DNA of 21,009 nucleotides from a bacterium (GCA_043818275.1 JBDRFY010000004.1:1-21009), one strand, 5' to 3'; positions 1 through 19,343 are shown, counted from the first letter of the stretch. Program-made: numbers and translations. Notes: generated by a model not told the origin, from the sequence alone.

Positions 1-1718
1 GCGGGGAGTTCTATAAAAAAGGTTGAGCCATTGCCCTCGCCTTCTGACTCGGCCCACACCCTGCCCTTATGGGCTTTTATAATCTGGCTGGCAATGTACA
101 GCCCGATGCCCCGCCCGGTAACGAATTCCTTTTTGGCATGCTCTCCCCTTTCAAAAGTGCTGTTAAAAAGTTTTTGCATTCTTTCTTTTGTCATTCCAAT
201 GCCCGTGTCTTTCACCTCAATTAAAATTTTATTTTCGCCGCCGGTATTATCTGTTTTTAGTTCTTCATTTTCTACTTTTAACTTTATTTCCACTCCCCCC
301 TTCTGCGTATATTTTATGGCGTTGTCAAATATGTTATACAGGGCTGCTTTCAACTTTTCCGTGTCACCCCTTATGGGTGGAATATTTTTCGGTTTTTCCA
401 GCTTTAAATAAATTTTCTTTGTGTCTGCTTGAAATTTTAATTCATTTGCTATTTCTTCCATCATCGGCCCCATCTGAATATCTTGTTTTAGCATAACTAC
501 CTCTTTTCCCAGCTGAAACTGGGTAATGTCTAAAAACTCGTTCACCATTTTAATCAAGCTGTTGGTTGAACCGCAAAATTTTTGTATTACCTCTCTTGTT
601 TCTTTGCTCTGCTTTCCGTAAACTCCTTTTAATATCAAGTCTGCGTACCCCATCATAGAAGTCAAGGGCGTCCTTAAATGGTGCTGAATTGTCAAAAGAA
701 ACTGATTTTTCGCTTTATCCAAATACTCCAACTCCTCCTTCGCTTTCTTCTCCACCTCGTAGGCCTCCTCCGTCCTCTCTTTGGCTTGTTTTTCCGCTTC
801 ATATGCTTTTTCCGTCTGTTCTTTGGCCCACTTCTCCACCTCATACGCCTGCTGAATCTCCTTAGCCAGTTTTTCAATCTGCTCCCTTTGCTTTACTTCT
901 TTCAAGATACTACGAGCAAGTAATATGCCAACAAAAAAAATAGCAATAAATAAGCCAGTGTTTATAAAAAAGTCTTGCGAATCATTCGAAAAAAATATTT
1001 TTATGGCCGATGCAACCCAAATTATAAAAATAAATAATTCAGTGGTAATCACCCTAATACCAAGAAGGTGATATTTAACAATAGCAAAGAATAAAACTAA
1101 AACACAAAGAAAAGCGGTAATATAGGGAAATGGAAATATAATATCAATACCATAAGCGGGCAGAAAAGCAAAAGATGTTATTGCTATAATAAAAAAAGTA
1201 AAAAGTATATAATTAGCTTGATTTTTTTGTATTCCCGCGGCTTTTCTTTGAAAAAAATAAATATTTAAAAAAGCTAAAACAATATAAAAAGCAAAAAAAG
1301 CTAAAAATATAGTGTGTAAGGGTTTTGCCTGAGCATGGACGCCCCAATTATATTTATATAATCCCGATATAAAATAATCTGTTGTACTTAAAATTGAAAA
1401 AAATAAAAAAATAAAATACCCTAAATATATAAAAAATTTTTTATTTTTAATATTTTCTGTAAAAAGAAGAGTAAAATGGTAAAATAAAATGGGAATAAAT
1501 ACCACTGCAGCATATACTATTTTGTCCCAAAAAATAGCGGCTCCTTCAGTTGTGCTTGAAAGCATCATAAAAGAAGCAAAAAGCCAAATCACCACAGAAA
1601 AAATAAAGAGTGAAAAAATCTGATTCAATCTAGAATTTATATTTTTAGCCAATGCGACTATTCCTAAAAAAAACGCTGAAACGGCTCCAATTAATGGAAA
1701 AAATGAATAAATATTCAT
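1..1718 (-). CDS. Membrane sensor histidine kinase (HisKA_7TM-like input, coiled coil, HisKA, HATPase_c); 3' end lies beyond the window edge
   Basis: Not in the ORF track because there is no stop in the window. Manual translation from ATG 1718 gives MNIYSFFPLIG..., several TM helices, H-box QHHLRTPLT, N-box NIFDNAIKYT, G1 VKDTGIG, G2 GRGIGLYIA, and ends GSTFFIELP at the edge. Confidence 0.92.
   Translation of the reverse strand, partial: MNIYSFFPLIGAVSAFFLGIVALAKNINSRLNQIFSLFIFSVVIWLFASFMMLSSTTEGAAIFWDKIVYAAVVFIPILFYHFTLLFTENIKNKKFFIYLGYFIFLFFSILSTTDYFISGLYKYNWGVHAQAKPLHTIFLAFFAFYIVLAFLNIYFFQRKAAGIQKNQANYILFTFFIIAITSFAFLPAYGIDIIFPFPYITAFLCVLVLFFAIVKYHLLGIRVITTELFIFIIWVASAIKIFFSNDSQDFFINTGLFIAIFFVGILLARSILKEVKQREQIEKLAKEIQQAYEVEKWAKEQTEKAYEAEKQAKERTEEAYEVEKKAKEELEYLDKAKNQFLLTIQHHLRTPLTSMMGYADLILKGVYGKQSKETREVIQKFCGSTNSLIKMVNEFLDITQFQLGKEVVMLKQDIQMGPMMEEIANELKFQADTKKIYLKLEKPKNIPPIRGDTEKLKAALYNIFDNAIKYTQKGGVEIKLKVENEELKTDNTGGENKILIEVKDTGIGMTKERMQKLFNSTFERGEHAKKEFVTGRGIGLYIASQIIKAHKGRVWAESEGEGNGSTFFIELP
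723..848 (-). repeat. 3 x 42-bp in-frame tandem repeat (14-aa unit) in the kinase signalling helix
   Basis: AYEVEKWAKEQTEK / AYEAEKQAKERTEE / AYEVEKKAKEELEY; the Ala codons start at 848, 806 and 764. Confidence 0.85.
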
Positions 1719-4809: not shown

Positions 4810-4959
4810 AACTTTTTAATTATTTTTTAAGTTAAAATTTACTCTTTTTTTATTATACACTAATTTTTAGAAAAATACCTGTTTTGATTTGATAAAATAG
4901 GTTTATGGAGTTGAGGATTTTTTACTTTGAATTTCTCAAAGTATTCTTGGCTCTGTGTT

Positions 4960-5943: not shown

Positions 5944-6909
5944 TTATCTAAAATATTTAGACTTAATTTCTTTTTCTGCTATTTCGGCGTAAGTTTCACG
6001 AAGCCGTTTTTCAAAATCAAGATTTTTCTGCGATTCTTGCAATAGTTTTTTATCAATTTCAATTTCCTTGGAAACGCTGCGCATCAACATAATTCCTGCC
6101 ATAAAAACTAAAAACGCCAAAACGCCGTTTATCCAAAATTCTTGATAATTGCTTGATAAAACCACCCTAGCAATTACAAAAATCCAAATAGAAAATACTA
6201 AAAGTTCGCTTATTAAAAGTTTTATATTAAATAAATGATGTTTTGCAATTCCACAAGCAACAATTATCATTCCAACAGCGCCCAAAAAATTGGTAACCGG
6301 CGGAATCATAATTCCATACCAAAGAAAATAATTTGGAGTAGCCCCTATAAATCCTATAATTGCTCCGACAAGAATATATTTAAGCTGAGCTTTATAGGAG
6401 GCATCCGCAGATGTTCTTTTAATTTCTTTGACTATAATATAAGCGGATAATAAAAGATAAAAATACCATACCGCTAAAAATGGGGCTAAAAGAACACCTG
6501 CTTTGGGCCAAAATTCAAAAAATAATTCTTTTTGCACATTTTTGACAATAAATGGAGTGAAATAATCTGTCAGCAAAAAGAAGAAAAATATAACATATCC
6601 GCCTATTAAGAGTTTCTTGTATTGTTTGATTTTGTTTGTAAACGCAAGTATTGAATGAAAAAATAAAATTGCGATGAAAATTGAAGCGCCCATTAAGAAA
6701 AAACGATGATTAAGCAAAATAAGGTTTTTATCTTTTAACAAAAACCATGCAAAATAAGCGTAACTCCAAATAGCCACTGCTCCGCAAAACAAAGCAAACA
6801 CTTTATTAACAAGCTGTTTTCTATTTCTAAAATAAACAATAAAACCTAAAATCGTGGCAACTAATGCATTAACTAAGGGATTTATTATATAAAACAACAT
6901 TCCCGACAT
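5944..6909 (-). CDS. Kinase-less HisKA_7TM-like membrane sensor protein
   Basis: NKVFALF..IWS, KAQLKYI, KHHLFNIK..SELL, RSVSKE; tail LDFEKRLRETYAEI. Confidence 0.82.
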   Translation of the reverse strand: MSGMLFYIINPLVNALVATILGFIVYFRNRKQLVNKVFALFCGAVAIWSYAYFAWFLLKDKNLILLNHRFFLMGASIFIAILFFHSILAFTNKIKQYKKLLIGGYVIFFFFLLTDYFTPFIVKNVQKELFFEFWPKAGVLLAPFLAVWYFYLLLSAYIIVKEIKRTSADASYKAQLKYILVGAIIGFIGATPNYFLWYGIMIPPVTNFLGAVGMIIVACGIAKHHLFNIKLLISELLVFSIWIFVIARVVLSSNYQEFWINGVLAFLVFMAGIMLMRSVSKEIEIDKKLLQESQKNLDFEKRLRETYAEIAEKEIKSKYFR

Positions 6910-7094: not shown

Positions 7095-7571
7095 ATGCCC
7101 AATAGACACTATTTTTTAAAAGAGGATCTTGAGGCACTAAATGAATCTATTAGAGATATAGACGACCGCATTAGAGATATATTGCAGCAAGCCGGAGGCA
7201 GTTGCCAAGAGGGCGCAGATACATGGCACGATAACTTCGAATATGAAGAAAGCCAACGTGGCGCGTCTATGTGGTCAAATCGCTTGCGAGAATTGGTTTC
7301 TTTAAGAGCAAGTGCTCATTTGATTATACCTTCTCTTACTGGCGACGAGGTTCTTATCGGTCGCACTGTAACAGTAGAAGATGAAATAACAAAAGAGAAA
7401 AGCACATTCCAAATCGGTAGTTATATGGCCTTGAAAAAAAGGACGGGACAAGAAGTGGTCTCTTACGCCGCTCCGCTTGCGAGCATCCTTATCGGCGCCA
7501 AAGTTGGTGAATCAAGAGAGGGTAAAGTTGGAGGCGAAATAAAAAAATTCAAGGTCATAAAAATAAAATAA
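7095..7571 (+). CDS. GreA/GreB family transcription elongation factor (divergent)
   Basis: N-terminal coiled coil with tip ADTWHDNFEYE; C-terminal VLIGRTVTV and VSYAAPLASILIGAKVGE. Confidence 0.85.
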   Translation: MPNRHYFLKEDLEALNESIRDIDDRIRDILQQAGGSCQEGADTWHDNFEYEESQRGASMWSNRLRELVSLRASAHLIIPSLTGDEVLIGRTVTVEDEITKEKSTFQIGSYMALKKRTGQEVVSYAAPLASILIGAKVGESREGKVGGEIKKFKVIKIK

Positions 7572-7733: not shown

Positions 7734-8168
7734 TTAGAGAAAAATTCTTTTTAGTCTTTTATAAATAATGTCTTTTTCGCTACTAAAATATGTTTTCACA
7801 TCCTTCTTGTCGGACCAAACAAAATCTGAATGTTCTTTGCTTAAAACAATAATAGGAGATGTCATATTTAATACAATTTTATAAGTATGTTCTGTAACGT
7901 TTTTTGTATTTCCAGTTCTTGTTTCAAAACTATATTTTTCTAAATCCACAAGCATTGCTTTGTTTTCGATATCGTTAATAGTAAGACCGGTTTCTTCCAT
8001 AACCTCTCTTTGTAGAGACGTTAAAATGTTTTCGTTTTTTTCAATTCCTCCCGAGGGAAGCTCCCAAACATTAGGCATAGAATCTTCTAACGAACTTCTT
8101 TTTATTAAGAGCAATTTTCCCGAGGCGTCGATAATAAGCGCCGCTATATTTGTTTTTTTAATAATCAT
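7734..8168 (-). CDS. NUDIX hydrolase (MutT-like)
   Basis: Nudix box GGIEKNENILTSLQREVMEETGL; LLIKRS; LSKEHSDFVW. Confidence 0.92.
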   Translation of the reverse strand: MIIKKTNIAALIIDASGKLLLIKRSSLEDSMPNVWELPSGGIEKNENILTSLQREVMEETGLTINDIENKAMLVDLEKYSFETRTGNTKNVTEHTYKIVLNMTSPIIVLSKEHSDFVWSDKKDVKTYFSSEKDIIYKRLKRIFL

Positions 8169-8516: not shown

Positions 8517-8545
8517 TTGACAATGATAATTATTTATACTATATT
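8517..8545 (+). promoter_or_regulatory. Sigma70-type promoter of the NDK-like gene
   Basis: TTGACA (8517), 17 bp, TATATT (8540). Confidence 0.65.
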
Positions 8546-8588
8546 AAAAAAGATCGAGTTTGTCATCTATTTCCGAAAGGAGATTAAC

Positions 8589-9074
8589 ATGAGTCTTAGC
8601 TTTTTAATGATCAAGCCCGATTCGTACAACAGGTGCATTGCTGATACTGTTAGAGTTGATGTTCTGGTTTTATGCCGGAATTATCACCTTGAAGTTGTCG
8701 GCCAATGGACAAAAAAGTTAACACGGGAAGAAGTCTTAAGGATATACTCCACCATTCGCGAAAAGTCATTTTTCGACGAATTCATGGGATTGATGGTGTC
8801 CAACTATTCCACACTCATTTTGGTTGACGGAACCGATGCGGTTGTAAAAACCAAACTGATTCGGGGTGATTGTAGGCACAGTAATTCAGATCCTATGAGT
8901 GGCATTCGTGGCAAGTATTGCTATGTAGAAGACATTAGTGCCGACGATTGGGATAAGTTGCTTAAGAGGTGTCATCCTGACACCGAAAGACTTATTCAAA
9001 TCATCATTGGTGGCGTTCTACACGCTCCCGACAGCGAACAGGAAGTTCAACCCACACTAGCCGTGTTTAACTAA
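8589..9074 (+). CDS. Nucleoside diphosphate kinase-like protein (divergent)
   Basis: SD AAGGAG before ATG 8589; FLMIKPD, KLIRG, IRGKY, and catalytic-His region LHAPDS. Confidence 0.8.
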   Translation: MSLSFLMIKPDSYNRCIADTVRVDVLVLCRNYHLEVVGQWTKKLTREEVLRIYSTIREKSFFDEFMGLMVSNYSTLILVDGTDAVVKTKLIRGDCRHSNSDPMSGIRGKYCYVEDISADDWDKLLKRCHPDTERLIQIIIGGVLHAPDSEQEVQPTLAVFN

Positions 9075-9079
9075 AACCC

Positions 9080-9108
9080 AGCAGCGGACTTAATTGCTCG
9101 CTGCTTTT
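9080..9108. terminator. Hairpin between convergent genes
   Basis: Stem AGCAGCG...CGCTGCT followed by Ts. Confidence 0.6.
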
Positions 9109-9631
9109 ATTTGTAAAAATCCTCTTGGAAACTACATATTAAAAATGCTATACGCAATGCTTCAGTAAAACTCTTTTTTCTCTCAATAAGTTCGTCTAAA
9201 TGATCAATAAGAATCTGGGATTTATCACTATTTTCCTTTCGGAAAACTCTTATTGTATCACCAAACTGCTCACCATTGTCTATTTGATCTGAGACTTTTT
9301 TGGGAAGCGGCAATTCACTGCTCATACCAATAAATTGTTTTCCTTGATTGTCAATCATAACAGCAACACAGATTAAATAATATAAACCGTTTATTTTCAG
9401 TAATCCGCCCTCTAATCCTATTGAAAAAGCAAATTCTCTACCATTTTTTGCAGCGTTTCTTGCGCGATTAGTAGCACCAAGTATAGTAGTATCCTCATCT
9501 AAAGGCTGATCTACTATTTCCGAACTGACATCTTGCGGAAGAATATTATATTTTTTGCCCTGTTGCTCAAAAAAATCTTTTACAATTTTTAATTTAGACT
9601 CACTTGTTGTTCCTATCAAAATATTTTCCAT
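9107..9631 (-). CDS. yjjX: Inosine/xanthosine triphosphatase (YjjX/DUF84 family)
   Basis: ILIGTTSESK, VSSEIVDQP, GATNRA, IGLEGG, LPLP. Confidence 0.82.
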   Translation of the reverse strand: MENILIGTTSESKLKIVKDFFEQQGKKYNILPQDVSSEIVDQPLDEDTTILGATNRARNAAKNGREFAFSIGLEGGLLKINGLYYLICVAVMIDNQGKQFIGMSSELPLPKKVSDQIDNGEQFGDTIRVFRKENSDKSQILIDHLDELIERKKSFTEALRIAFLICSFQEDFYK

Positions 9632-9636
9632 TTTTT

Positions 9637-10839
9637 TTATTTTAATTTTAATTCGTGCCCCATTCTTTTTTGCTTGGTTGCTAGATAATGTTTATTATCC
9701 TTGCACGGTTTTATCTCAAGCGGAATTCTACCCTCAACAATAACGCCGAGCTCTTCTAATTCCCTTATTTTTTCCAAATTATTTGTTAAAATTTTCACGC
9801 TTTTTATTTTCAAGTCATTTAAAATATCCCTAACAGCTGTATATTCTCTCATTTCTATTGGAAAACCCAGCATCTCATTTGCATCTACGGTATCGGCCCC
9901 TCTCCTTTGCAAGTTATAGGCGTCTATTTTATTAACAATGTTTATACCACGTCCTTCCTGGAACAGATAAATCAATAACCCTTGTTTGTTTTTCTCAATC
10001 ATTGATAATGCCCTTGCCAACTGATCCCCACAATCGCAAAGCAAAGATCCAAAAATATCACCGGTAGCACAAGAAGAATGAACTCTTAATAAAACGCCTT
10101 TTTTATTTTCGATATCGCCCTTAATTATTGCTATTCCTGTTGTGTAATCTATTTTTGACAAATAGGTTATGATATCAAATAAGCCAAATTTGGTATTCAA
10201 TTTTGAGCTCGATTTTCTTTCGTAAGTAGTCTGAATATTTTTTTCATGGCTTTTTATCTTTTCGAAAATAGAACTAATAACAAAGTGTTTTGGTTGATTG
10301 GCGCTGACACTGAAATATGATTCTGATATGGGCGATAAAATACGGATGGCGTCGGTCACAAATTCAAAAAAGGTATAATATTCGTTTTTAATATCTTCTC
10401 TGTTAATTTTGTTTTTCAGCATTGCACTACCGCAATTTGAGCAAAAATTCCCTTTAATAATATGAAAATCACCTTTATAAATAAACCCACACTTCTCGCA
10501 GAAAAATCTATTTTCTAAATTGGAAATTACTCTTTCTAAGTTAATATTCAGTTGAATAATAGATTTAACGGTGACTTTTTTTTTATTAAGTATTTCCAAC
10601 AGGAATTGAGCCTCTTCTTTGTTAATAGGAAAACCGCTCAACACAATTTTATCATTTTCGCCAAACCCATTTATGAGACTATTTTTTAAAAGTTTTAATT
10701 TATTTTCTTTATTTGTTTTAACTTTGATGTCGCGCCAAGCGATATGCAAAGCATCAAAAAAATCTGCTATTGTTTTTGAATACAGTGTCTTATTTGCCCC
10801 CGGTGGTCCCACGAAAATATAAATTTCTTTTTGGTTCAT
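9637..10839 (-). CDS. ribA: Fusion of an adenylate kinase-like domain (Zn-LID, degenerate) and GTP cyclohydrolase II
   Basis: N-terminal half: GPPGANKT, SGFP, CEKC..CSNC. C-terminal half: RVHSSCATGDIFGSLLCDCGDQL, QEGRGI, DTVDAN, LTNN, YLATK..RMGH. Confidence 0.9.
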   Translation of the reverse strand: MNQKEIYIFVGPPGANKTLYSKTIADFFDALHIAWRDIKVKTNKENKLKLLKNSLINGFGENDKIVLSGFPINKEEAQFLLEILNKKKVTVKSIIQLNINLERVISNLENRFFCEKCGFIYKGDFHIIKGNFCSNCGSAMLKNKINREDIKNEYYTFFEFVTDAIRILSPISESYFSVSANQPKHFVISSIFEKIKSHEKNIQTTYERKSSSKLNTKFGLFDIITYLSKIDYTTGIAIIKGDIENKKGVLLRVHSSCATGDIFGSLLCDCGDQLARALSMIEKNKQGLLIYLFQEGRGINIVNKIDAYNLQRRGADTVDANEMLGFPIEMREYTAVRDILNDLKIKSVKILTNNLEKIRELEELGVIVEGRIPLEIKPCKDNKHYLATKQKRMGHELKLK

Positions 10840-10843
10840 AATT

Positions 10844-11824
10844 TTATAAATAACTTATTTGATAAGAATTTGACATTTTTTTAAGCGGCCTCAGAATCTC
10901 TTTATTATATCTTGTTCCCTTCTCATATCCCATAGACCCAATATTCATAAATTTCACTCCTCTGCTTTGTAATTCTTCACATATTTTAAAATATAAATAC
11001 CTCGACAGACCGGATGTTCCGTATTTTTGCCCGTTTATTTCGTAACCGTTCAAGCATTTATTAATGATGCATATTACAGAATCAGGTCGGACAATTTCTG
11101 CAAGTAAAGCACCGCACAGTTTATTATCAAAATCAACTAATCTTGTCATAAAATTAGGATTTTCCCTGTTTTCTATAAAAAAATCTAAATAATCCAAATC
11201 TGATCTTTCCCGATTAATGCTATACTTCGTACCTTGGGTAGCAAGCCAATTTCTAAAGAGCTCCTGTAATTCTTCCTTCGTTTGAGTGGTCATCTCTATA
11301 TAACTGCATTTGCCAGTCTTTTCAATTTTATTTACATTTTGTCGTAGACTGCCGTAATCCTTACCAGCTAACGAAGCAGTTCTCTCGGTTGATAGTATGG
11401 CTTCCTCAGAAGAATGGGCTGATATCATGTGTTTGTAATTTAATAAAAACTCATGATTTTTTATGTATTCCTCTGAAATTCCCCTAATTGAAAGCGGCAT
11501 GCCAGCCGAAGATGCGTCATTATAAATTCCATCAAATTCTGTGGGATCTAATATTGGATCAATAAGTTGTAATCCGTTATCCCTGCGCAAGGCCAAATTC
11601 ATCCCTTTAGTTTTCAATAAAAAGGGTGAGAATTTTGGATCATGTAAAAGCTTATTTAGGTAGGTAGCGCACTGCTCAAAAAGAACTTCGCTTTCATACC
11701 CAAACCTTTCCAGGTATTCAGATTTTAATCTATCCGTATTTTCGGGTTCAAGCTCAAATGGAGCCAACCATTTTTCTGAAAATTCCTCACCATCATTAGC
11801 TTCATGAAATGATTCGTTTTTCAT
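10844..11824 (-). CDS. DUF2156 / LPG_synthase_C-like aminoacyl-tRNA-dependent transferase (GNAT fold)
   Basis: LAGKDYGSLRQNVNK, INKCL, and FMNIGSMGYEKGTRYNKEILRP resemble DUF2156 motifs. Confidence 0.68.
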   Translation of the reverse strand: MKNESFHEANDGEEFSEKWLAPFELEPENTDRLKSEYLERFGYESEVLFEQCATYLNKLLHDPKFSPFLLKTKGMNLALRRDNGLQLIDPILDPTEFDGIYNDASSAGMPLSIRGISEEYIKNHEFLLNYKHMISAHSSEEAILSTERTASLAGKDYGSLRQNVNKIEKTGKCSYIEMTTQTKEELQELFRNWLATQGTKYSINRERSDLDYLDFFIENRENPNFMTRLVDFDNKLCGALLAEIVRPDSVICIINKCLNGYEINGQKYGTSGLSRYLYFKICEELQSRGVKFMNIGSMGYEKGTRYNKEILRPLKKMSNSYQISYL

Positions 11825-12954
11825 AATTTTATTTCGCCCATCTTAATAAGGCTAATATTTTTAGATTTTAAAAAATCTTCATATATTTTCTTAAAATGAT
11901 TACCTATATGCATATAAACCGAAGGAATTGTTGAAACATCTGTGCCCTTTGGAGGTATCGGGAATTTTTTAGCCTTGATTTTATTATTTATTGAGACTAA
12001 CCTACAAGAAATATCCTGCTCAAACTGAATATAAAAACTACCATCATCCTTACCCTGCGTAAGTTGTAATTTAGAGAAGCCTGTTTCTATATTATATTTT
12101 GTCTTATAAAATTCTTCAAGTTGGGCGAAAAAATCAAAATCTCTGCCGAAATGTTTAATACCAGATAATGATAGTACCCAATATATTATCTCCTTGCATG
12201 GCAACAAAATGCCTTCTCGAAGCGATTCAATTATTTTAATTGCTTGATTAGGATTGAATTGATTTATAGTTTTTAAATTATTTGTGTACATAAAATATGG
12301 TGGTGCAATAAGAGATGAATTATTAATCAGATTATCAAGGCTGAAAGGCGTATTTTTGGAATTTTCCATAAGCCAAGGTACAAATTCTTTAATAATAGTG
12401 GTCTGCATAAAACTTTGAGAGTATGTATTATAGAATTCGGCTACATCGGTGAAATCTAAAAATTTATAAATCTCCACCACTAACTTTTTGTAAAAATCAG
12501 ACGAGCTTATGTTCGGATTTTCATTAATAATTTTACCATAGATTTTCATTAATGTTTGGAATCTGTCCAAATAAGCCTTTTTTAATATTGCCTTTTTATA
12601 TTTTGGATAATTGAGAACTAAATCCAGGCAATTTCCCAATTCATTTAGCTGTCCGTCGAGATCGGGTTTAAGCACCGACGATTTTCCCTGAATCTGATTT
12701 ACAGGGAAAATAAAATATTTAGTGTCGTTCGGAGCAAAAATTCCAGAGTCTAAAATAAAATCAGTTCGGCTCTTTTTTATTTTAGGATAAATACTGTCCC
12801 AAATTATTACTTTGACGCCACCCAGCCGCATGAGTCGATGATGCGAATCAATCAATCTGATTGGAATACTAGAATAAACATGATCCACGGTTGAAATTGT
12901 AGACTCCTGAATACCGGTTATTTCTTTAAATTTTTCCTTAAAAAATTTATCCAT
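11821..12954 (-). CDS. Hypothetical soluble protein, first gene of the operon
   Basis: Long ORF; likely start is ATG 12954 (the track uses TTG 12972); its stop overlaps the next ATG (ATGA). Confidence 0.75.
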   Translation of the reverse strand: MDKFFKEKFKEITGIQESTISTVDHVYSSIPIRLIDSHHRLMRLGGVKVIIWDSIYPKIKKSRTDFILDSGIFAPNDTKYFIFPVNQIQGKSSVLKPDLDGQLNELGNCLDLVLNYPKYKKAILKKAYLDRFQTLMKIYGKIINENPNISSSDFYKKLVVEIYKFLDFTDVAEFYNTYSQSFMQTTIIKEFVPWLMENSKNTPFSLDNLINNSSLIAPPYFMYTNNLKTINQFNPNQAIKIIESLREGILLPCKEIIYWVLSLSGIKHFGRDFDFFAQLEEFYKTKYNIETGFSKLQLTQGKDDGSFYIQFEQDISCRLVSINNKIKAKKFPIPPKGTDVSTIPSVYMHIGNHFKKIYEDFLKSKNISLIKMGEIKL

Positions 12955-12970
12955 GTTAATTAATTTTAAC

Positions 12971-12999
12971 AAAAAAGACCGCTCTCTGCAAACGGTCTC
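12971..12999 (-). terminator. Terminator of the second GreA-like gene
   Basis: On the minus strand, stem AGACCG...CGGTCT followed by a T run. Confidence 0.65.
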
Positions 13000-13020: not shown

Positions 13021-13491
13021 CTATTTACAGGAAGATGGCGGAAAAATCTGACCGATTGTTACCGTAATTTTCCTGATATCGGCTATAAAACTTATCGTTT
13101 CTCCTGACTTTGCACCAAGAATAGCTTTGCCCAATGGGCTATCCATTGAGAGCGAGTCCTCTGAACCGGGAAGAACAAAGCTTTCAATTAAGTAGTTTTC
13201 CGTATCTCCATCCTTGTAGATAATTTCTACCATATTGCCGAACTGAACGCTTTTGTTTTGTTCAACTGGCTCAACGATTTCAGCATTGGCAAGCACCGTT
13301 GCAAAATTATTGGCTATGCTGTCATGAACAAATGTTTCTCTTAAGCTTAACTGGTATCCCTCATCATGATGGCCATCTTGCTCGGCACCAGACTGGTAAC
13401 CACTGCCAGCGATGTCGTCAGCCTTTTTTCTTGCTTTTTCGACCATCGTCTTGAGCTCCGCGAACTTTTTGGGAGTAAAAAAATGTCTCAC
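13021..13491 (-). CDS. GreA/GreB family elongation factor (divergent paralogue)
   Basis: SD GGAGG and GTG start; tip QDGHHDEGYQ; VQFGNMVEI; LSMDSPLGKAILGAKSGE. Confidence 0.85.
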   Translation of the reverse strand: MRHFFTPKKFAELKTMVEKARKKADDIAGSGYQSGAEQDGHHDEGYQLSLRETFVHDSIANNFATVLANAEIVEPVEQNKSVQFGNMVEIIYKDGDTENYLIESFVLPGSEDSLSMDSPLGKAILGAKSGETISFIADIRKITVTIGQIFPPSSCK

Positions 13492-14043: not shown

Positions 14044-14669
14044 TCAAAAATAAATTTCGAATCTCTTTTTAATGTCTGTAAATTTCTCTTTTCTGAAGTT
14101 GAACTTAAAGCCGGGCCTGTCGTTTAAATTCTCGCACACTTTGTAAAAATCTTTGTCGTTAAGAATTTTTAAATTAAGTTCCGCGCAAACTGACGAGATT
14201 TTTTTGTTCGCCTTTTTTACATTATCTGAGTTAGTGGCAATTTCTGCCTCAAAATAGCAACCCCAACCAGGAACTTCTACTAAAGCAAATTCAACTTGTT
14301 CATATAAATATAAATAAGTTTTCGTCGCCTGCAACACCCCATAATAAAAACCAAGTAAATTTAAAAATTCTGCCATCTCTCCGAACTTTTTCGAGTCTAT
14401 CGGAAATAAAAATTCTTTTCTTGCATCGTTTCCGCTCCATTTACCATACTTTAAAACTAACTCTGATTTTTTATTTGTAATCCTTATTCTCAAATCTATG
14501 GGGTTATCTTTATCCAAATCAAAATTTTCCTCTTTTCCGTGTAAAAAATAGATCACAGAAAATCTATTCTTTTCTCCGATAAATTTTCCTTTTTTTTCAA
14601 AAACTTATTTAAATCTTTAAATTTTTTCGCGGACAAAAGTCCACGGTGTTCAACTTCAATTTTTGTCAT
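14044..14669 (-). CDS. CYTH-domain triphosphatase / class IV adenylate cyclase-like protein, split by a frameshift at an A8 run
   Basis: ATG 14669 gives MTKIEVEHRG (ExE motif) in a different frame from LRIR..LVLK..RKE..YFEAE. A -1 shift at 14590-14597 joins them. Confidence 0.8.
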
Positions 14670-14739: not shown

Positions 14740-15165
14740 TTATTTGAAAAATTTTTTAATTGTCGCTTTTACGCCCGGGGTATATTCTAAATTTTTCCGC
14801 TCATTTTTTGAAACCCATTTAAATTCCGTATGTTCTTCGCTTAATAATACATCTCCATTAATCGGCCGCGCCTTAAATCCATAAATATTAAATTTTTTAT
14901 CTGGGCAGTTATAAACGCAAAAATGATTCTTTTTTAACTCTATGTCTAAACCGCTTTCTTCTTTTGCCTCTCTTTTTGCGGCTTCTTGCAGGGTTTCTCC
15001 GCTTTTTACATTTCCCCCGGGCAAATCCCAAAAATTTGGATAACTCGGTTCATGCGAGCTTCTTTTTAAAACAAGAATTTTTTTCTGACTGCTAAAAATT
15101 ACAACGCTAACGCATTTTTTCTTGGGTTTTTTTGAGTTGTAAATTTTACTTGGAATATGGTTCAC
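14740..15165 (-). CDS. NUDIX hydrolase (MutT-like)
   Basis: GGNVKSGETLQEAAKREAKEESGL; LSEEHTEFKW. Confidence 0.92.
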   Translation of the reverse strand: MNHIPSKIYNSKKPKKKCVSVVIFSSQKKILVLKRSSHEPSYPNFWDLPGGNVKSGETLQEAAKREAKEESGLDIELKKNHFCVYNCPDKKFNIYGFKARPINGDVLLSEEHTEFKWVSKNERKNLEYTPGVKATIKKFFK

Positions 15166-16232: not shown

Positions 16233-17655
16233 ATGGCAATAAAAAATTATAAAAAAAATCAGCAACTGGACAATCTTTTAGACATTCTTGGCCTAAGGGG
16301 CAAAGAAAGAGATGTTTTTTCTCTCTGTTTTTTTTTCAGGTCCCCTGCCTGCCTCTACCATTGCCAAAGAATTAAATATCAACAGAGCGGCTGTTTACCA
16401 GATTATAAACCAGCTTATAGAAAAAGAAGTCTTGCAGAAAGAAAATATTTCCGGAAAAAAACGCTTGTTTAATTCTGTGTCCGCAGAAGAAATAAAAGGA
16501 ATGCTTTTGCAAAAACAAAAACAGATTTCTGAAATAGAAAACCAGCTACCCTCGCTTTTGCTTGATAAAAAAATACAACAAGACAGCGATTCTTTATCAG
16601 TGGAAACTTTCAGCACTTCTTTGTCTTTAAGGCAAATGCTGTATCGCGCAATGGATAATTCAAAAGAAAAAATGTATTTAATTGCCAGCGTTGACAGCCC
16701 TTATAATATTTATGAAAAAAAAGTTTTTGATTCTTTTTTGAAAGAGTTGTCTCGAAAAAAAATAATATTGTATGTATTGGTTCCAAGAGAAGAAGATGCG
16801 AAAAAAAATAACATGTGGAATCGCGAATCAATAAAGGTTAAATTTTTAGAAAAAAGCGATTATCCGTTTTCTGACGGACTTTTGATCTCTGATAAATTTT
16901 TATTTATGTTTTCCTGGAATCCTCAAAATCCAAAAGGCCTGATGATTTCAGACAAAACAATCAGGCAGACATATTTGTCTTTGTTTTTACTGCTTTGGGA
17001 AAAAACTATTTATTCTGAGCAAAAGACAGATAATAAAAAAGTTTTTCCAAGCAATATGCAATTAGTTCCGGGCGGTTATTTTTATTCTGGCGAGGAATCA
17101 AATGCCAAGAAAATATTTTTAGATTCGTATTTAATAGATAAAACGCCCGTAATTAACACAGAATACCAAAAATTTGTTAAGGCAATCGGTTATCATTTTC
17201 CAGAGCATTGGAAAAATGGACAAATTCCAAGAGGCGAGGAAAACTATCCTGTTTATAATGTTTCGTGGTATGACGCAAAGGCATATGCTAATTTTGCCGG
17301 AAAAAGATTGCCCACAGAAGAAGAGTGGGAAAAGGCGGCAAGGGGAAGCGATAAAAGAATATATCCTTGGGGAAATAATTTTGATGTTAATTTTTGCAAC
17401 ATATTAAGAAAAAACAAAGGCGCTACTCCTGTTGAGAAATATCCTTTAGGTAAAAGTTATTATGGTTTATGTGATATGGCGGGCAATGTTTGGGAGTGGA
17501 CAGATACTCCAAGCAGCGAAAAAAATTATTATATTATAAAAGGCGGCTCGTGGTCAGATAATGAAAAAACCGCTCAATGTTTTTATAAAACATCAGAGTT
17601 TGCCGACAAAAAATACGATAACATCGGCTTCCGCTGCGCAAAGGATATTATTTAA
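16233..17655 (+). CDS. TrmB-family regulator (wHTH and effector domain) fused to an FGE-sulfatase/SUMF1 domain; frameshift near the 5' end
   Basis: ATG 16233 gives ...LGLRGKERDVF, which continues as SGPLPASTIAKELNINRAAVY in another frame. C-terminus has PVYNVSWYDA, RLPTEEEWEKAARG, YPWG, DMAGNVWEW, KGGSW, IGFRC. Confidence 0.82.
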
Positions 17656-17951: not shown

Positions 17952-19343
17952 CTAAACGACCATCTTTTGGACGCGTGAACCGCTCTTGGTGTCTTGGATT
18001 TTGTATCCCTTCGACTCCAATTCGACCCTAACTTTGTCGGCCTCGCCCCATTTCCCCTCCTTTCGAAGGGTTTCCCTGCTTGCGACGAGAACCATGACTT
18101 CGTCAGGAATCTTGTCTTCCTTGACCTTCATAAAGTCTAATCCTAACACCTTATCAAATTCGGCGAATGTGGCCCTTTTCATCGCAGACGGAAGTGTCAT
18201 GCCGACAACTTTCCAAAGAAAAGCAACAGCTTGCGGCGTATTCAGGTCGTCATTTAAATACCCCCGAAATTCGCCAAGCAATTCTTCGTCTGGTTTGGCA
18301 TTAGTATCTTCCCATTCAGCAATCCTCTCTCTCAAGGAAGACAACGCTTTCTGGGACCCACCAAGACCGTTCCAAGTGAAGTTGAGACCGGCGCTGTATT
18401 TAGCAGTCAGCAACAGATACCTAAAAGCAAGTGGATCGTATCCTTTGTCCACAATATCTTGGAGTGTATAGAAATTCCCCAGGCTTTTAGACATCTTTCC
18501 GCCGTCAACGGTTAGAAAAGCAACATGCATCCAATACCTTGCGAATTGCTTCCCAGTTGCTGTTTCAGATTGAGCGATTTCATTGGTGTGGTGCACCGGA
18601 ATGTGATCAATCCCGCCGGTGTGCACATCAATTGTTTCTCCGAGATACTTCATCGCCATCGCGCTGCACTCAATGTGCCAGCCGGGGAAACCTACGCCCC
18701 AAGGACTGCTCCACTCCATCTGGCGTTTTTGATCCTTGGGAGAAAACTTCCAAAGGGCGAAATCTGTTGGATTCCGCTTTTCAGGATTTTCCTCGACACG
18801 TGCGCCGGACATTATGCCGTTGATGTCCAGCCTTGCCAAATGTCCATACTCGGCAAGCTTAGATGTGTCGAAATAAACCCCATCAGAAATTTTGTATGTA
18901 TAGCCCAGTTTTTCTAAACATTCAATCAGTGCAATCTGCTCTGGGATATGCTCGGTTGCCCTGCTCCAAACGGTTGGGGACTTAATATTAAGACTAATGA
19001 GGTTTTGCTTGAAGAGATCGGCAAAAAATTCCACAATATCCCAAGCCGAACGGTGTTGTTCCCTTGCACGAGCTTCGATTTTATCCTCACCCTCATCAGC
19101 ATCAGACCTGAGATGCCCGACATCGGTAATGTTTATTACGTGCGTCACTTCATAGCCGTTAAACTCAAACATCCGCCTGAGAATATCGGCGAAGACATAT
19201 GCCCGCAAGTTCCCGATGTGCGGGTAATCATAGACCGTTGGCCCGCAAGTATAAATCTTAACCTTGCCGGCCTCCAATGGCACGAACACCCTCTTCTTTC
19301 TTTCGTAGGTGTCGTAAATCTGAACTTCGTTTGATGTTTTCAT
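17952..19343 (-). CDS. cysS: Cysteine--tRNA ligase
   Basis: [39 protein letters not shown]. Confidence 0.98.

Follow-up and report, generated by a model that had tools for sequence, protein, structure and literature searches.

We examined a 21,009-nt contig deposited with a bacterial genome bin (GCA_043818275.1, JBDRFY010000004.1:1-21009; hereafter “the window”, i.e., the contig at its full length), and in particular four consecutive minus-strand open reading frames (ORFs) in it, A to D, the third of which joins an adenylate kinase (ADK)-like domain to GTP cyclohydrolase II (GCHII). Gene A (11821–12954) encodes 377 aa from an ATG at 12954; its listed ORF (11821–12972) opens with a TTG at 12972, and the ATG is the start common to 21 homologues. 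It overlaps gene B (10844–11824, 326 aa; DUF2156/LPG_synthase_C-type tandem-GNAT) by 4 nt, a gap of 4 nt separates B from gene C (9637–10839), and a gap of 5 nt separates C from gene D (9107–9631, 174 aa; YjjX/NTPase_I-T). These ORFs, starts, and gaps match the four-gene operon described in a first-pass annotation of the same sequence, and the domain calls made there hold as well, i.e., PF09924 for B, PF00925 together with PF00406 for C, and PF01931 for D.

Reading 9107–12954 as an operon is plausible because a hairpin lies upstream and a convergent gene downstream. The terminator-like hairpin (12975–12999, minus strand; 10 bp, GC-containing, followed by a T-run) sits between the gene A ATG and the stop (13021) of a gene for a 156-aa GreA/GreB-like factor (13021–13491, minus strand; PF01272, 38.2 bits), which lies upstream of A. 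At the other end, an NDK-like gene (8517–9074, plus strand; PF00334, 43.6 bits) converges on D, the NDK match covering residues 28–136 of its listed 185-aa frame. RNA searches of the window returned no tRNA and no Rfam family.

Predicted functions of the four genes

The GCHII half of gene C (9640–10224, residues ~206–400) appears complete from its sequence, with all checked catalytic residues present. It scores 185.7 bits against PF00925 (cut-off 23.3) and 215.8 bits against TIGR00505 (cut-off 205.85), and its alignment to E. coli RibA (2bz0) is gap-free, at an offset of 203. C257, C268, and C270 fall on RibA C54, C65, and C67, i.e., on the zinc site CX2GX7CXC, and R331, Y308, and K357 correspond to Arg128, Tyr105, and Lys154. 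Of these, Tyr105 takes part in ring opening and deformylation. None of the checked residues varies among 31 fusion proteins, and in a wider set of 154 GCHII domains their conservation is 97% or more; excerpts of a published study (PMC10366380) describe, for GCHII, the zinc motif and the role of Arg128 in pyrophosphate release.

The N-terminal domain of the same protein (10240–10839, residues 1–200) is degenerate. PF00406 matches it at 29.2 bits (cut-off 26.8), over residues 48–145 only, and TIGR01351 reaches 57.4 bits, below its cut-off of 168. The P-loop reads GPPGANKT (family consensus GPPGSGKT), with K17 invariant in 31/31 fusion rows, and the lid retains its CxxC...CxxC pattern. At the GFPR motif, 16 of the 31 fusions have the Arg, as against none of the seven rows of the window's own clade, which have I, T, or Q at this place (Ile in gene C), and those seven rows also miss ~23 residues of the segment that binds the nucleoside monophosphate (NMP); we take both the Arg and the segment to serve in NMP binding. 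As such, the ADK::GCHII fusion named in the first-pass annotation has both of its domains, with the qualification that in this clade the ADK-like one has lost these NMP-binding elements and may bind nucleotide without being a working NMP kinase.

The fusions form a clade of their own. When 158 GCHII domains were placed in a quick maximum-likelihood tree (a more careful search did not finish), all 74 fusion-labelled domains fell within a single 77-row subtree (SH-aLRT 91), the other three rows being short or contig-truncated proteins. When alignment columns were compared, after dropping four long-branch or outlying rows (L115, L147, L107, and P0097), residue 300 (approximately nt 9940–9942; position 97 of the E. 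coli enzyme, within the QEGRGI-G/N loop) was Asn in 77/77 rows of this clade and Gly in 77/77 RibA-type rows, with a neighboring column holding Ile in the fusion clade vs Leu in the RibA-type enzymes. Compared to RibA and RibBA, of which the solved E. coli (2bz0) and M. tuberculosis (4i14) enzymes match at 150–154 bits, gene C thus shares the domain and its catalytic residues but differs in three respects: its GCHII has an ADK-like partner domain where RibBA has DHBP synthase, its clade is separate and carries Asn for an otherwise invariant Gly, and neither its surroundings nor two fusion-bearing genomes (see below) showed a ribD, ribH, or ribE.

Gene A belongs to a small orphan family and, judged from its predicted structure, may encode an enzyme that adds amino acids or transfers nucleotidyl groups. 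No Pfam or NCBIfam family matched it, its family profile returned chance-level rows only when compared to PDB sequences, a protein atlas search gave no usable match, and Foldseek comparison of its model to the PDB returned nothing at E ≤ 0.001. Homologues were found as 22 clusters among 5.8 billion clusters and as 82 representatives among 1.84 billion proteins, and in the homologue alignment T22, D24, H25, R33, H38, D69, H268, G270, D272, Q297, T299, D304, and H349 are invariant. The AlphaFold model (pLDDT 92.5, pTM 0.91) was then compared to 48,161 chains in an exhaustive VIA-align pass. BshC came first (4wbd_A; Z 14.1, root-mean-square deviation 4.4, 301 residues aligned) and class I LysRS second (1irx_B, Z 10.8), followed by ArgRS, CysRS, and MshC at Z 6–7 and then by many other class I aminoacyl-tRNA synthetases (aaRS); cyclodipeptide synthases scored Z ~4. 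The model thereby places gene A in the class I aaRS catalytic fold, with BshC as its nearest predicted relative. The first-pass annotation had listed this gene as unknown, which holds at the level of family matches; the fold now gives it a predicted identity as an aaRS/BshC-like protein, and of all the genes it accompanies the GCHII fusion most faithfully (see below).

Two conserved stretches of gene A differ from the canonical HIGH and KMSKS signatures: T22-x-D24-H25 after the first strand, and K267-H268-x-G270-x-D272 at a later strand. Both presumably sit where those signatures lie in class I aaRS, and the T-x-D-H after the first strand also resembles nucleotidyl-transferase signatures. BshC, MshC, and the class I aaRS, to which the predicted fold is closest, join an amino acid to a small-molecule amine. 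BshC, of bacillithiol synthesis, adds cysteine to an amino sugar; for MshC, of mycothiol synthesis, excerpts of a published account describe ATP-dependent ligation of Cys to an amino sugar (PMC9736012). Gene A differs from BshC in having no detectable sequence similarity to it and in its length (377 vs 540 aa), and from both BshC and MshC in that its genomic partners are nucleotide enzymes, not glycosyltransferases or deacetylases.

Two members of the family have unusual forms. In L163–L165, a 208-aa gene A (~1993–2616 in L163) is followed by a separate 155-aa ORF, and the gene may be split or frameshifted there. P0172 (803 aa) has a long N-terminal extension very rich in Trp and Asn, and given the Trp excess its source organism may read TGA differently from the translation used.

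Gene B is predicted from its model to be a soluble tandem-GNAT protein of the aminoacyl-tRNA (aa-tRNA)-dependent transferase type. It passes PF09924 (43.8 bits vs a cut-off of 27.5), and its model (pLDDT 76.4, built from an 8-row alignment) has as best Foldseek match 2hqy, a soluble and uncharacterised Bacteroides DUF2156 protein (E 2.3e-14), followed by MprF C-terminal domains (~1e-10), the aa-tRNA-dependent peptide synthases Sbb17/Sba18 (~5e-9), and FemX (1e-8). In excerpts of a published account, the GNAT-fold enzymes Orf11, PacB, VlmA, and DhpH, along with the aaRS-like AcmF and SbzA, aminoacylate small molecules, nucleosides included, and several GNAT-fold transferases act on nucleotide-linked or amino-sugar intermediates (PMC12945691). 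Both the family match and the structural matches to solved transferases tie gene B to this set, i.e., to the MprF C-domain/DUF2156 proteins, FemX, PacB, Orf11/Sba18, VlmA, and DhpH. It differs from MprF in being soluble: its Pfam match is to the catalytic-domain family only, and its 326 aa include no MprF-like membrane flippase domain.

Gene D probably encodes a divergent member of the YjjX/NTPase_I-T family of phosphatases for non-canonical purine NTPs. It scores 105.3 bits against PF01931 (cut-off 25) and 65.3 bits against TIGR00258, below the cut-off of 117.1, and the other NCBIfam equivalogs also stay below their cut-offs. Solved VC0702 and YjjX structures match it at 1e-8 to 1e-6, among them 1zno (VC0702, 1.8e-8) and 1u14 (YjjX, 2e-7).

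Gene orders and fusions in other contigs

The four-gene arrangement is not due to chance, since it recurs in other contigs. A scan of metagenomes with gene A as a probe yielded 21 loci, 14 of which have an ADK::GCHII(::CYTH) gene adjacent or near; about nine of these are distinct, as L157–160 form one set of copies and L163–165 another. Among the remainder, L156 starts inside the CYTH end of an upstream gene, and the contigs of L149, L150, L151, L153, L162, and L166 break off at the flank that carries the fusion in relatives. None of the 21 loci had both flanks visible and the fusion missing. Gene A is therefore the most faithful partner of the GCHII fusion. A complex prediction for C with A scored 0.00, which counts neither for nor against this partnership.

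Two types of cassette can be distinguished. In clade 1 (52–89% identity to A), the order is Gre-like, A, B, (DegT aminotransferase), C, (D), with the Gre-like gene directly upstream of A in 7/7 loci and B directly downstream of A in all five loci that reach that far. L148 has Gre-A-B-C-D and keeps the order of the window through the convergent NDK-like gene, L152 reads Gre-A-B-DegT-C, and L154 reads C::CYTH-Gre-A-B. In clade 2 (25–35% identity to A), the order is ADK::GCHII::CYTH, A, and an S-adenosylmethionine (SAM) methyltransferase of ~255 aa; all six downstream genes that were Pfam-scanned are methyltransferases, and a Gre-like neighbor is missing from these cassettes. NUDIX genes recur near the cassette in L154 and L163–165. 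The neighborhood search proposed in the first-pass annotation has in this way borne out the association of the genes, with the full order in L148 and with further links through domain fusions.

These fusions connect most of the components to one another. Among the 120 matches listed in the fusion search, the first 68 cover 83–100% of the query, except for P0055 and P0059 at 64–67%; from P0069 on, the GCHII half alone matches and the proteins are ordinary RibBA. Thirteen of the first 68 are 639–664 aa long, eight of them with a precomputed CYTH domain, and domain checks identified ADK::GCHII::CYTH in P0038 and P0042 and GCHII::YjjX in P0066. Gene A itself is found fused to ADK (ADK::A, P0175) and to a methyltransferase (A::methyltransferase, P0190).

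Two annotated genomes provide additional gene orders. L023, from a Saccharibacteria genome, reads ADK::GCHII, CYTH, A. L022, from a Patescibacteria genome, reads Gre-like, ADK, tRNA-Thr(TGT), an unknown 305-aa protein, B, DegT, ADK::GCHII, YjjX, with the tRNA-Thr(TGT) at 4870–4945 (plus strand), between the stand-alone ADK and the 305-aa gene. This embedded tRNA is suggestive of an aa-tRNA-dependent step. An hhalign comparison of the gene A family to the 305-aa protein gave a probability of 0.3, and a link between the two was rejected.

One reading of the Gre-like and tRNA associations is that the product is a signal, i.e., that a modified guanine-derived nucleotide, which the cassette would both produce and break down, reports the supply of amino acids or charged tRNAs and is sensed at the RNA polymerase secondary channel by the Gre-like factor, in the manner of DksA and ppGpp. 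The constant position of the Gre-like gene in clade 1 and at the head of the L022 operon would fit, as would the tRNA-Thr inside that operon, the use of aa-tRNA as donor by the fold family of gene B, and the presence of CYTH, NUDIX, and YjjX-type hydrolases, which suit turnover. However, in the window a terminator-like hairpin lies between A and the Gre-like gene, Gre genes are common housekeeping genes, clade 2 does without a Gre-like neighbor, and the binding itself is conjectural. Overall, we consider a signalling nucleotide distinctly unlikely.

Overall, the cassette is rare and patchy in Patescibacteria. Of 401 sampled genomes of this phylum, 36 had a match at E ≤ 1e-30, with the whole profile in G261 only and an adjacent, split ADK and GCHII pair in G578; the other eight frames that were Pfam-scanned are all DHBP-synthase::GCHII (RibBA). 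A contig scan with the fusion alignment found fusions in 2 of 80 loci, with ordinary RibA dominating the matches. The nominal phylum of the bin that holds the window (G000) has a GCHII match in 9 of 261 genomes, with three of five Pfam-scanned frames RibBA, and the nine stretches fetched around these matches contained no A, B, or D homologue near GCHII. A sequencing-run search returned groundwater metagenome DNA runs only, with shares ≤0.22, and listed no RNA run.

Host of the contig and the riboflavin question

The window corresponds to the entire contig C4 of bin G000 (92 contigs, 1.33 Mb, 94% complete, 4.2% estimated contamination), and sequence comparisons make it very probable that it was mis-binned and stems from a Patescibacteria organism. 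The bin has two copies of CysRS. The C78 copy shares 76.5% identity with its counterpart in G001, a genome of the same genus, vs 39–41% for the copy in the window, which is 39–43% identical to those of the bin's own phylum and up to 57% identical (E 4e-181) to those found among 301 genomes of Patescibacteria, the phylum of G261. Comparison of the window to G001 by blastn gave two matches, of 99 and 56 nt, vs 73 and 28 matches for two same-length control contigs of the bin, many of them kilobases long and at 70–77% identity. In addition, the closest relatives of A, B, and C that carry a name bear the label Parcubacteria or Patescibacteria. Composition was not decisive, pieces of C4 falling in the 5–14% tail of the bin's 8-kb chunks. 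A large foreign island within the genome of the bin is less likely than mis-binning.

The CysRS gene of the window (17952–19343, minus strand) is an outlier within its own contig, with a GC content of 0.473 vs 0.328 for the rest, which could reflect a recent transfer or an assembly join.

No riboflavin-pathway family was found among the 22 window ORFs scanned, in agreement with the earlier remark that the window holds no other rib gene, nor was any found in L022, L023, or the annotated metagenome cassette loci. The genome-wide check for ribD, ribE, and ribH that had been proposed along with this remark was negative, with no ribB, ribD-C, ribH, or ribE found in G000, but we rejected this absence as evidence: since the contig very probably does not belong to that genome, it says nothing on the operon. 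In this way, a mis-binned contig can invalidate a test for missing genes at the level of a metagenome bin. The fusion-bearing genomes G261 and G262, for their part, have no match to PF00885, PF01872, or PF00926, each of which was found in 14/14 control genomes.

The fusion might still be a plain riboflavin enzyme, i.e., the RibA of its organism, with the other pathway genes elsewhere or host-supplied. Its GCHII is ~50% identical to RibBA enzymes and keeps the checked catalytic residues, and RibBA is what other Patescibacteria have in each of the frames checked. However, ribH, ribD-C, and ribB families are unmatched in G261 and G262, no annotated cassette locus includes a rib gene, and the fusion clade stands apart from both RibA and RibBA with its own Gly-to-Asn signature. 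We consequently regard a plain RibA as highly improbable, and the cassette seems not to serve riboflavin synthesis.

A candidate pathway from GTP and its alternatives

The best explanation of these observations is that A, B, C, and D together make up the core of an accessory cassette, patchily distributed in Patescibacteria (Candidate Phyla Radiation, CPR), which starts from GTP and does not make riboflavin. More specifically, we tentatively propose that the cassette aminoacylates a GTP-derived aminopyrimidine nucleotide, a possibility that we place a little short of an even chance. In a first step, the GCHII domain very likely turns GTP into 2,5-diamino-6-ribosylamino-4(3H)-pyrimidinone 5'-phosphate, formate, and pyrophosphate, as its catalytic residues indicate. 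In a second step, which the fold and gene linkage point to, A and then B would attach one or more amino acids to an amine of this product or of a close derivative, yielding an aminoacyl or peptidyl aminopyrimidine nucleotide; we speculate that such an acylated intermediate might re-close to an 8-substituted guanine nucleotide. In a third step, the ADK-like domain, gene D, and the NDK-like and NUDIX proteins may set the phosphorylation state or clear toxic side products, the CYTH domain having a similar phosphate or clean-up role in other lineages. The DegT aminotransferase and SAM methyltransferase of some variants would then be tailoring steps, as often found in biosynthetic gene clusters.

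The first-pass annotation had raised an undescribed pathway on a GTP-derived nucleotide involving aminoacylation. This remains the best reading because the genes co-occur and fuse with one another and because no rib gene accompanies them at these loci; its chemistry is drawn from sequence and fold. GCHII initiates other non-flavin pathways, of the toxoflavin type. There, the ring-opened GTP product is likewise fed to a specialised pathway, and a SAM methyltransferase is shared with some cassette variants; in contrast, no RibD-like deaminase/reductase occurs in any annotated cassette locus, and the partners found here are aaRS-like, DUF2156, ADK-like, CYTH, and YjjX proteins. A literature search found no paper on the ADK::GCHII fusion or on this cassette. 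What is new here is the assignment of gene A to an aaRS/BshC-like family and its place beside the fusion, the network of fusions, the Gly-to-Asn signature of the clade, the two cassette types, and the very probable mis-binning of the contig.

Several points weigh against this proposal. The functions of A to D are all predicted, and a shared fold does not give a substrate: at the level of sequence nothing ties gene A to a characterised family, and it might instead act as a nucleotidyl-transferase from within the same superfamily. As for its nearest structural relative, the BshC reaction has, in the excerpts of one published account, never been reconstituted in vitro (PMC5790435). The ADK-like domain of the window's clade may be catalytically dead. 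L022 has no gene A, and B and D are missing from many cassettes, such that only the pair C and A, or C and B, is conserved. The completeness of G261 and G262 is not given, which makes their missing rib genes weak evidence. Finally, an order-level search around G395 (16 genomes) had a gene A fragment in G512 as its sole find, beside a CYTH gene on a short separate contig, and this genome also has RibBA; parts of the cassette and the canonical riboflavin pathway may accordingly coexist in one genome.

The neighborhood of the operon, which is full of general nucleotide-handling genes, adds a further point of this kind, as it would also fit a loose salvage island. Two NUDIX hydrolases (7734–8168 and 14740–15165, both minus strand) and a weak CYTH/CyaB-like ORF (14044–14556, minus strand) make up, with the NDK-like gene, a dense nucleotide-handling surrounding. 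If the organism cannot make nucleotides, GCHII could dispose of GTP that is damaged or in excess and release ribose phosphate, formate, and pyrophosphate, with the YjjX-type and NUDIX enzymes cleaning the pool and no special product shared among them. Such salvage or house-cleaning would account for the two NUDIX genes, the NDK-like gene, the CYTH-like ORF, the YjjX-type gene, and the ADK-like domain all lying within 8 kb, and for NUDIX genes near the cassette in other loci. It would, however, leave unexplained why an aaRS/BshC-like protein and an aa-tRNA-type transferase are the tightest partners, and also why ADK::A and A::methyltransferase fusions exist, and a general need would not be so rare as to leave the full fusion in one of 401 Patescibacteria genomes along with one split form. 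We therefore consider this explanation unlikely.

A nucleotide-depleting defence module had been the other suggestion of the first-pass annotation, and it found no support. As an anti-phage or conflict module, the cassette would respond to infection by exhausting GTP or by producing a toxic nucleotide analogue, the hydrolases serving as immunity. The patchy spread, which looks horizontally transferred, and the variable accessory genes are compatible with this, and two NUDIX neighbors match the candidate PADLOC family PDC-S07. On the other hand, A, B, C, and D match none of the 5027 PADLOC models (2023 library), and neither a typical defence sensor or effector nor a mobile-element gene was present among the window ORFs scanned. 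We give this explanation very little credence.

Returning to the proposed aminoacylation, a version of it that ends in a signal or a weapon is conceivable, if quite improbable: the aaRS-like family and the aa-tRNA transferase would acylate the amine exposed when GTP is ring-opened, and the product, a peptidyl-aminopyrimidine or an 8-substituted guanine nucleotide, would be read at RNA polymerase by the Gre-like factor as a sign of charged-tRNA supply or used against the host cell. These ultra-small bacteria would then have a branch of nucleotide chemistry not known before. The genomes of Patescibacteria are tiny and the organisms are believed to live at the expense of other cells, yet this cassette commits several genes to a GTP transformation that fits no known pathway. 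If the proposal is true, the cassette would define an aaRS/BshC-like enzyme family that is new, give the first riboflavin intermediate a fate not seen before, and possibly yield a novel metabolite or signal derived from a nucleotide. Gene A, as a distant structural relative of BshC with a clear metabolic context, could also help in understanding the BshC reaction.

Elsewhere in the window, a second GreA/GreB-like gene (7095–7571, plus strand) lies within 6 kb of the paralogue upstream of A (13021–13491, minus strand). A histidine kinase at 3–1718 (minus strand) has an N-terminal seven-transmembrane (7TM) sensor region (HisKA_7TM), and an ORF at 5944–6909 (minus strand) consists of a 7TM region alone, without the kinase domains. 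At 16312–17655 (plus strand), a winged-helix (TrmB/MarR-like) domain is fused to an FGE-sulfatase (formylglycine-generating-enzyme-like) domain, an unusual architecture for a regulator.

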